From a virus (Duplodnaviria > Heunggongvirae > Uroviricota > Caudoviricetes): a stretch of DNA of 9,356 nt. Each line of letters opens with the position of its first letter. Within the stretch, counting starts at the first letter, position 1. The position numbers and the translations under genes are program-made. The stretch lies in the IMG/VR virus record IMGVR_UViG_2744054627_000002, one strand, 5' to 3'. Shown here in pieces: positions 5,509-8,677 of the stretch. The notes beneath the pieces were generated by a model. It searched no databases and was not told where the DNA came from. It saw only the letters and a program-made list of their open reading frames with translations.

Positions 5509-7601
<2,093 letters not shown>

Positions 7602-7627
<26 letters not shown>

Positions 7628-8147
7628 TCAGCAACCCCGGTATCAGTTCATCCAGCGCGGCTGCTTTGTTCATGGCTTTGATGATATCCCGTTTCAGGAA
7701 ATCAACATGTCGGTTTTCCAGTTCCGGAAAACGCCGCTGCACCGACAGGGGGATCCCGTCGAGAATACTGGCAATTTCACCTGCGATCCGCGACAGCACG
7801 AAAGTACAGAATGCGGTTTCCACCACTTCAGCGGAGTCTCTGGCATTCTTCAGCTCCTGTGCGTCGGCCTGCGCACGCGTAAGTCGATGGCGTTCGTACT
7901 CAATAGTCCCTGGCTGGAGATCTGTCTCGCTGGCCTGCCGCAGTTCTTCAACCTCCCGGCGCAGCTTTTCGTTCTCAATTTCAGCATCCCTTTCGGCATA
8001 CCATTTTATAACGGCGGCAGAGTCATAAAGCACCTCATTACCCTTCCCACCGCCTCGCAGAACGGGCATTCCCTGCTCCTGCCAGTTCTGAATGGTACGG
8101 ATGCTCGCACCGAAAATGTCAGCCAGCTGCTTTTTGTTGACTTCCAT
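7602..8147 (-). CDS. nu1: Terminase small subunit gpNu1, 181 aa, intact
   Basis: ORF translates to MEVNKKQLADIFGASIRTIQNWQEQGMPVLRGGGKGNEVLYDSAAVIKWYAERD..., lambda Nu1 with its N-terminal helix-turn-helix; 546 nt; the 3' end overlaps the A start by 26 nt as in lambda. Confidence 0.92.
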
Positions 8148-8149
8148 TG

Positions 8150-8240
8150 TTCATTCCACGGACAAAACAGAGAAAGGAAACGACAGAGGCCAAAAACCCG
8201 TTTTCAGCACCTGTCGTTTCCTTTCTTTTCAGAGGGTGTT
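8150..8240 (-). promoter_or_regulatory. cosB: terminase (gpNu1) binding region with R-site inverted repeats
   Basis: Perfect 15-bp inverted repeats GAAAGGAAACGACAG (8162..8176) and CTGTCGTTTCCTTTC (8211..8225), the lambda R-site motif, immediately upstream of Nu1. The segment between them differs from the lambda sequence I recall. Confidence 0.7.
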
Positions 8241-8310
8241 TTAAATAAAAACATTAAGTTACGGCGAAGAAGAACGGAAACGCCTTAAACCGGGAAATTT
8301 TCATAAATAG

Positions 8311-8380
8311 CGAAAACCCGCGCGCCTTCCGCCCCGTAACCTGCCGGATCGCCGGAAAGGACCCGCAGAAATGAGCGGGT
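8311..8380 (-). other. cosN plus cosQ-like sequence (cohesive-end site) with a variant right half of cosN
   Basis: Minus strand reads GGGTCCTTTCCGGCGATCCGGCAGGTTACG-GGGCGGAAGGCG-CGCGGGTTTTCGCTATTTATG. Flanks match lambda, but the 12 nt equivalent to lambda's cohesive end GGGCGGCGACCT is GGGCGGAAGGCG (window 8323..8334). Confidence 0.7.
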
Positions 8381-8410
8381 TAACATATGTTTATTTGCGG
8401 CAAAAATTAC

Positions 8411-8440
8411 AGATATAAAAAAGCCCCGCATCGCGGGGCT
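8411..8440 (-). terminator. Rho-independent terminator for minus-strand transcription
   Basis: 8-bp GC stem (8423..8429 pairing 8433..8439, 3-nt loop), followed on the minus-strand transcript by UUUUUU (plus-strand A run 8417..8422); sits 20 nt after the stop of the 71-aa gene. No U-tract in the other direction. Confidence 0.7.
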
Positions 8441-8461: not shown

Positions 8462-8677
8462 TTAGCTGACTTCAACAAATATAAAATCATCACTGCCTAA
8501 ACAATGAGAGCCATAACGAACTTCATACTCCCCATTCAATTCAGAGCATTTAGACTTCGCATCGCCTTCCGTTGCATAAACACCAACAAGATGCCATGGC
8601 TTGTAACGTACTACAGCCCAACCAAGAACCCATCCTTGATTATCAGGATCTGCCTTCAGGTTATTTTCCACAAACAT
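8462..8677 (-). CDS. Hypothetical small protein, 71 aa, no recognised family
   Basis: ATG at 8675..8677 (complement) preceded by AAGGAG at 7-nt spacing; bounded by an in-frame stop upstream; product MFVENNLKADPDNQGWVLGWAVVRYKPWHLVGVY...; AT-richer than the head genes. Confidence 0.6.
   Translation of the reverse strand: MFVENNLKADPDNQGWVLGWAVVRYKPWHLVGVYATEGDAKSKCSELNGEYEVRYGSHCLGSDDFIFVEVS

Follow-up and report, generated by a model that had tools for sequence, protein, structure and literature searches.

A lambda-type cos with a natural right-half cosN variant, probably functional, in a lambdoid prophage

Is a lambda-type cos whose cohesive-end sequence is no longer lambda's still cut by its terminase, or has it been inactivated? 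The question arises in a 9,356-nucleotide stretch of viral DNA (IMG/VR virus record IMGVR_UViG_2744054627_000002; hereafter the window), a lambdoid prophage segment that lies in reverse orientation relative to lambda and carries a complete lambda-type cos on its minus strand (8364..8147). An earlier note, made from the sequence alone, had described the cos as lambda-type apart from a divergent cohesive end, and had left two outcomes standing: nicking of a non-canonical cosN, giving ends incompatible with those of lambda, or loss of cos function. We conclude that the site is very likely a working lambda-type cos with a natural right-half cosN allele.

Alignment to lambda cos upheld the description of a divergent end in a lambda-type site (Table 1). 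As the lambda reference we used the lambda-derived DE3 prophage, in which GGGCGGCGACCT is annotated as 'cos site'. Minus-strand positions 8341..8310 of the window read GGTTACG, then GGGCGGAAGGCG, then CGCGGGTTTTCGC; the cohesive end itself (8334..8323) is GGGCGGAAGGCG, and that of lambda is GGGCGGCGACCT. The R sites, cosQ and both cosN flanks are the same as in the lambda (DE3) cos and lie at lambda's spacing, the only spacing differences being two homopolymer deletions of one base each. Residues 1-85 of Nu1, which include the winged helix-turn-helix DNA-binding domain, match lambda (DE3) Nu1 at 84 of 85 positions. The motif GGGTCCT is what we take to be lambda cosQ, at lambda bp 48,473-48,479 in Wieczorek and Feiss 2001. 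CosQ, 7 bp long, is a strongly conserved site (Feiss et al., 2015; PMC4669245), and for cosB we followed the published definition of R3 (PMC9026076). The window therefore has what marks a lambda-type cos, namely cosQ, the CG flanks and left half GGGCGG of cosN, a complex cosB, and adjacent Nu1 and gpA genes, and lacks only the canonical end, reading GGGCGGAAGGCG in its place; GGGCGGCGACCT defines the lambda allele rather than the lambda-like group.

Table 1. Elements of the cos region and the adjoining terminase genes in the window.
Feature	Position	Strand	Basis
cosQ GGGTCCT, packaging-termination element	8358..8364	-	exact motif; upstream of the top-strand nick by 23 bp, the lambda distance
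cosN core, CG + GGGCGGAAGGCG + CG	8321..8336	-	CG flanks 12 bp apart
cosN left half GGGCGG	8329..8334	-	alignment to lambda (DE3) cos
cosN variant right half AAGGCG	8323..8328	-	alignment to lambda (DE3) cos
cosB R3 AGGCGTTTCCGTTCTT, Nu1-binding site, cos bp 50-65	8270..8285	-	16/16 identical to lambda, at identical distance from cosN
R3-R2 interval with putative I1 (IHF) region	8227..8269	-	three transitions and no indels relative to lambda
cosB R2, inverted	8211..8226	-	16/16 identical to lambda
cosB R1	8171..8186	-	16/16 identical to lambda
Nu1 (terminase small subunit, 181 aa), intact; ATG at 8147	7602..8147	-	ORF; PHROG 57, E = 5e-77
gpA (terminase large subunit), split over three frames	5707..7627	-	tblastn pieces

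All differences between GGGCGGAAGGCG and the lambda end are confined to bp 7-12: positions 7, 8, 9, 10 and 12 are changed, and C11 is kept. The right half, AAGGCG for lambda's CGACCT, is changed at five of its six positions, three of them by transversion. Outside this block the stretch from cosQ to the Nu1 start carries 8 substitutions in ~212 positions (3.8%), all of them transitions. Arithmetic from the alignment puts the chance of such a block at P ~5e-7 for a given 6-bp window and ~1e-4 over all windows, and the change in the right half is therefore a block replacement rather than scattered drift. Rotationally symmetric positions fall from 10 of 22 in lambda cosN to 8 of 22 in the variant, with the pairs G3/C10 and G6/C7 lost, C4/G9 gained, and G2/C11 and the CG flanks kept.

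The earlier note had also held that this same-length substitution is unlike the homopolymer artefacts seen elsewhere in the window, and both parts of that remark were confirmed by comparison with the closest genome, E. coli PEC41 (NZ_CM168023.1; 98.1% identity, with 152 substitutions and 25 indels in the window). In each of the 25 indels it is the window that lacks bases (one base in 24 cases, two in the other), nearly always in a homopolymer run; the sites include 8196, 8167, 6586, 6194, 6169, 5931, 5912, 5581, 5257 and 5019, and further 4321, 4313, 2318, 2239, 2227 and 1306. Five single-base homopolymer deletions, near 6586, 6194, 6169, 5931 and 5912, split gpA, and other long head genes in the window are likewise frameshifted by homopolymer deletions. 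In the counterpart prophage of PEC41, Nu1, gpA (641 aa), portal, protease, D, E and every other head or tail gene are intact, and the 96-nt cos is identical to that of the window. The head genes run toward coordinate 1, in the order Nu1-A-W-B-C-D-E-FI-FII-Z as annotated in PEC41. Because all 25 indels are homopolymer-type deletions, we attribute the gpA frameshifts to sequencing error in an error-prone assembly, the pattern being typical of such error rather than of pseudogenisation; in principle the window's own prophage copy could be defective through real decay.

The variant cosN recurs in many independently assembled genomes. With a 53-nt query and seeds only across the variant block, 170 of 5,426 complete E. 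coli genomes (3.1%) proved to carry it, at 185 places in all, 169 of them chromosomal and 16 on plasmids; the comparison set is 7,134 lambda-type cos places in 3,958 complete E. coli genomes, of which the variant makes up 2.6%. The 31-mer formed by GTTACG, the variant and CGCGGGTTTTCGC occurs in 29 IMG/VR contigs, and with relaxed flanks ~50 IMG/VR contigs carry the variant, on at least eight different left-flank haplotypes. It is also found on 23 plasmids, most of ~46 kb, from E. coli, Shigella sonnei, E. albertii and E. fergusonii, and in exactly two of 50,697 phage records, PhiR46_1 (PV340565) and YDC107_1 (CP025712). The GTDB one-genome-per-species representatives gave a single match, Escherichia sp. 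E1V33, which together with the plasmid search suggests that the allele is confined to Escherichia/Shigella.

Among pooled IMG/VR loci with a lambda-type cosB the variant is by far the commonest non-canonical allele: it occurs 51 times, five other non-canonical alleles occur once each (sister alleles such as GGGCGGCAGGCG, GGGCGGAAGGCT and GGGCGGAAGCGT are singletons), and the canonical GGGCGGCGACCT is present in at least 114 copies. The left half GGGCGG is conserved in all alleles with a lambda-type cosB and intact terminase, barring one singleton. Two alleles dominate these loci, with no continuum between them. Simple neutrality of bp 7-12 might lead one to expect many different alleles, and the two-allele dominance counts against this; it is most simply explained by recent spread through recombination, which would fit because the surrounding cos is ~96% conserved.

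Polylysogeny is common in these hosts, with a median of 2 and a maximum of 8 places per E. coli genome matching the whole window, and a maximum of 7 matching the 96-nt cos segment. PEC41 has two places with the variant cosN and three that match the 96-nt lambda-type cos query, so that variant and canonical sites probably co-reside in one chromosome.

Terminase proteins of one and the same sequence can stand beside either allele. Identical gpA (641/641) and Nu1 (181/181) proteins are encoded next to a variant cosN in E. coli PEC41 (locus L151) and next to a canonical cosN at locus L049, and in a further comparison of variant with canonical the gpA of L006 is 100% identical to that of L136. No gpA residue was associated with the cosN allele among 17 variant and 35 canonical gpA sequences, the largest difference in residue frequency between alleles being 0.42, at T/I 466. 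The gpA proteins of PEC41 and of PhiR46_1 each match lambda gpA at 638 of 641 positions (99.5%), with different substitutions in the two. Judged from these identical proteins beside both alleles, the variant cosN has no compensating terminase change. Nor does the variant allele mark decayed loci: among distinct loci with a lambda-type cosB and at least 2,750 nt of downstream sequence, TerL is intact in 25 of 26 variant loci compared with 46 of 62 canonical ones, and full-length TerS and TerL are kept together in 25 of the 26.

The allele is also carried by a phage that is listed as an isolate. PhiR46_1 has a cosN 12-mer and a cosB identical to the window's allele type, and the strain table of one study enters it as a temperate phage, with isolation credited to Brenes and Laub 2025 (PMC13190303); the same study assayed plaque formation by a panel of lambda-related temperate phages from the Brenes and Laub source (PMC13190303). 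Its GenBank host, ECOR13, is not the strain of origin. PhiR46_1 has a full lambda head/tail module together with telL/telR and ParAB, and is therefore an N15-like telomere phage; its record and that of YDC107_1 were deposited in prophage (telomere-to-telomere) form. Both phages share with the window an identical 12-mer, right flank and cosB, and their Nu1 and gpA are lambda-type. They differ from it in being telomere plasmid-prophages (telL/telR, ParAB), whereas the window's element matches integrated chromosomal prophages, and in the left flank, which is GGCTACG in the two phages and GGTTACG in the window.

These two records (loci L149/L189 for PV340565 and L150 for CP025712) and the plasmid matches H191-H213 are N15-like elements of ~46 kb from Escherichia and Shigella. 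Their cosB is lambda's complex one, they encode Nu1, and their gpA shares 99.5% identity with that of lambda; the simple cosB of N15 and its 65%-identical TerL are absent. These elements combine lambda's module for packaging, head and tail with a replicon of N15 type.

Published cosN genetics places the changed positions in the half of the site that matters least to cutting. Natural variation falls in bp 7-12, where many mutations have minimal phenotype, and the left-half mutations symmetric to them are severe; G2C brings a ~10-fold fall in yield, and its symmetric counterpart C11G is without phenotype (Feiss et al., 2015; PMC4669245). TerL-lambda gives equal yields with cosN-lambda and cosN-N15 (PMC4669245). 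Right-half differences are common in lambda-like phages, at positions 9 and 12 in N15 and phiD326 and at 8, 9 and 11 in Gifsy-1, and the CG flanks, left half and cosQ are conserved across the group; Feiss et al. read this right-half variation as an absence of selection (PMC4669245). The cosN of mEp213/LLS is GGGCGGCGCGCT (PMC12315714).

The variant appears, from its sequence, to belong to this already described class of natural right-half cosN variants. In cosQ, the left half GGGCGG, the CG flanks of the nicks, the distance from cosN to R3, and R3, R2 and R1 it is identical to lambda cos, as is the adjacent Nu1 in its DNA-binding domain, and it differs at the five cohesive-end positions given above. 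As in N15 and phiD326, the natural changes are confined to bp 7-12; N15, however, is changed at bp 9 and 12 only, has a simple cosB and has its own TerL, 65% identical to lambda's, whereas the variant has five changed positions and lambda's cosB and terminase. Gifsy-1 and mEp213/LLS likewise have natural right-half alleles, but theirs are different 12-mers in phages with divergent head and terminase genes, and the variant adjoins an essentially lambda terminase. With five changed positions the variant exceeds the natural variants cited or tested (2-3 positions), so that tolerance by the terminase at all five is extrapolated from literature on two or three changes.

The unusualness that the earlier note implied survives only in part. 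The allele is divergent, but at its frequency in complete E. coli genomes it is not rare, and all its changes lie in bp 7-12, which vary naturally and are almost irrelevant to cleavage (PMC4669245). That note had allowed that this exact variant might turn out to be a common, characterised functional cos: common it is, and on the present evidence functional, while our literature search found no biochemical characterisation of the 12-mer. The search turned up no paper with GGGCGGAAGGCG, its reverse complement, extended versions or the sister alleles, although an earlier description is possible. A dedicated cosN survey was reportedly published by Vahanian et al. in Virology in 2017.

Nu1 acts at cosB, where R3 is critical, and anchors gpA; the distance from cosN to R3 is critical, and the gpA nuclease has little sequence specificity of its own (PMC9026076; PMC4669245). 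At the window's cos, Nu1 dimers would bind R3, R2 and R1 of cosB and IHF would bend the DNA at I1, setting gpA on cosN, where it would nick each strand at a conserved CG step, the two nicks being 12 bp apart. From the flanks and the cosN-to-R3 spacing, both identical to lambda's, we place the nicks between 8335 and 8334 on the minus strand (the lambda top strand, N1) and between 8323 and 8322 on the plus strand (N2). The bottom-strand nick, beside cosB, would be set by the Nu1-R3 anchor and not by a reading of bases 7-12, and a lambda-type terminase should therefore cut the variant about as well as the canonical site. Since only bp 7-12 are changed, and the CG flanks, left half, cosQ, spacing and C11 are kept, we infer lambda-type nicking.

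Such nicking would leave 12-nt 5' overhangs, GGGCGGAAGGCG at the left end and CGCCTTCCGCCC at the right. The two ends of one chromosome always match, because both come from the same duplex, and cyclisation would be unaffected. The cohesive ends have a G+C content of 10/12 in both variant and lambda, and the predicted duplex is of similar stability (-18.6 kcal/mol for the variant and -19.0 for lambda). Between a lambda end and a variant end only the six left-half pairs are left (-9.5 kcal/mol), and the variant ends would be unable to pair productively with canonical lambda ends. The first of the outcomes in the earlier note, a non-canonical cosN that is nicked to give ends incompatible with lambda's, is thus the most likely one, supported by PhiR46_1, by the intact terminase and by the published genetics (PMC4669245).

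Could the block be an error of sequencing or assembly in the window? The window does come from an error-prone assembly, with its 25 homopolymer deletions, but the errors seen there are single-base homopolymer losses and not same-length block substitutions, and the same 12-mer with its flanks stands in 170 independently assembled complete genomes, ~50 IMG/VR contigs, 23 plasmids and two phage records; the idea is effectively refuted, its chance close to nil. It is also extremely unlikely that the variant needs a co-evolved terminase, in gpA nuclease specificity or Nu1 positioning, and so represents a new cutting specificity. A 5-bp change inside the nuclease target could in principle require compensation, and gpA mutations that widen cosN specificity do reportedly exist, from work ascribed to Arens et al. 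in 1999. Yet gpA and Nu1 of identical sequence stand beside both alleles, no residue tracks the allele, and the gpA beside the variant is 99.5% lambda's, with few substitutions that differ between PEC41 and PhiR46_1. Inactivation of cos by the block substitution, leaving an unpackageable prophage as a decaying remnant, we consider very unlikely. It would suit the frameshifts in gpA and other head genes of the window, and the difference from lambda at five of six right-half bases; these frameshifts, however, come from indels that are all homopolymer-type deletions relative to the 98%-identical PEC41, where the genes are all intact, and it is known that mutations in cosN's right half are tolerated (PMC4669245). 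The share of variant lambda-type-cosB loci with full-length TerS and TerL (25/26) is higher than that of canonical loci, the variant sits on many flank haplotypes and replicon types, and it is found in a phage listed as an isolated temperate one, PhiR46_1, so that the earlier note's second outcome, an inactivated cos, is left unsupported.

A further reading accepts normal cutting and adds selection: the variant would be kept as a compatibility type of its own for cohesive ends, the second one in Escherichia phages with lambda terminase and cosB. We regard this as unlikely, with a small chance of being right. The weakness of cross-annealing, at 6 bp and half the stability of the matched duplex (-9.5 compared with about -19 kcal/mol), points toward it, as does the ~4-fold loss of viable yield caused by even a 2-bp cohesive-end mismatch (PMC4669245); only two alleles dominate, the variant keeps GC content and stability, and polylysogeny with several lambda-type cos sites is common in E. 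coli. Against it, the variant accounts for only 2.6% of lambda-type cos sites, it has passed freely to many backgrounds, a single neutral allele spread by recombination explains the pattern equally well, and Feiss et al. took right-half variation to reflect no selection (PMC4669245). Were such a compatibility type real, chromosomes with one cos of each type, which mixed concatemers could yield, or packaging that starts at one prophage cos and ends at another, could not cyclise and would be dead on arrival, and the variant would act as a post-packaging barrier, limiting cross-packaging between phages of one terminase specificity that are otherwise inter-packageable.

The preferred reading, a working cos with a natural right-half allele, leaves the biology little changed: it is one more, and more divergent, case in which the half of cosN next to cosB varies freely, as the published rule has it. 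It also provides a natural five-position test case of the functional asymmetry of cosN, with an adjoining terminase that is 99.5% lambda's. Tools for annotation or terminus prediction that seek GGGCGGCGACCT would miss lambda-type cos sites in ~3% of E. coli genomes. The ends of variant phages would not anneal to lambda's, which matters for cosmid and in vitro packaging and for end-mapping data.

A second family of cos flanks was considered separately. Its right flank reads '...TATTTATGAGC...GGTGGTGGTTTTGTTG' (IMG/VR loci L127, L195, L199, L202, L215, L218 and others), and its loci have a 183-aa TerS-like ORF. Its cosN is GGGCGTCAGGCG eight times, the AAGGCG allele four times, and two other alleles; GGGCGTCAGGCG is changed at position 6, inside the 'conserved' left half. 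Of its distinct loci, 12 extend far enough downstream to be judged, and all 12 lack a TerL of at least 600 aa within 3.3 kb; on this ground we dropped the idea that the family is a second packaging-specificity group rich in non-canonical alleles. Its members are probably cryptic remnants under relaxed constraint, and for that reason we excluded their cosN variation as evidence of function. The AAGGCG block might have reached active phages by recombination with members of this family, which would then be its reservoir.

Some smaller features surround the site. At window position 8296 (cos bp 40, minus strand) the spacer between cosN and R3 has a T-to-C change, AAAATTTCCCGG for lambda's AAAATTTTCCGG, which is common to the window and PEC41 and absent from PhiR46_1. 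Similarity to lambda ends directly upstream of cosQ, at about 8365..8400 of the window, a mosaic junction beyond which lie non-lambda genes (phrog_4280 and phrog_2571, with an M15 endolysin too in PEC41). Here a strong terminator-like hairpin on the minus strand (8422..8440) has an 8-bp stem with 7 G-C pairs followed by TTTTTAT, the T-run extending to about 8412; it lies ~60 nt upstream of cosQ and follows a 71-aa ORF (8462..8677, minus strand; phrog_4280).
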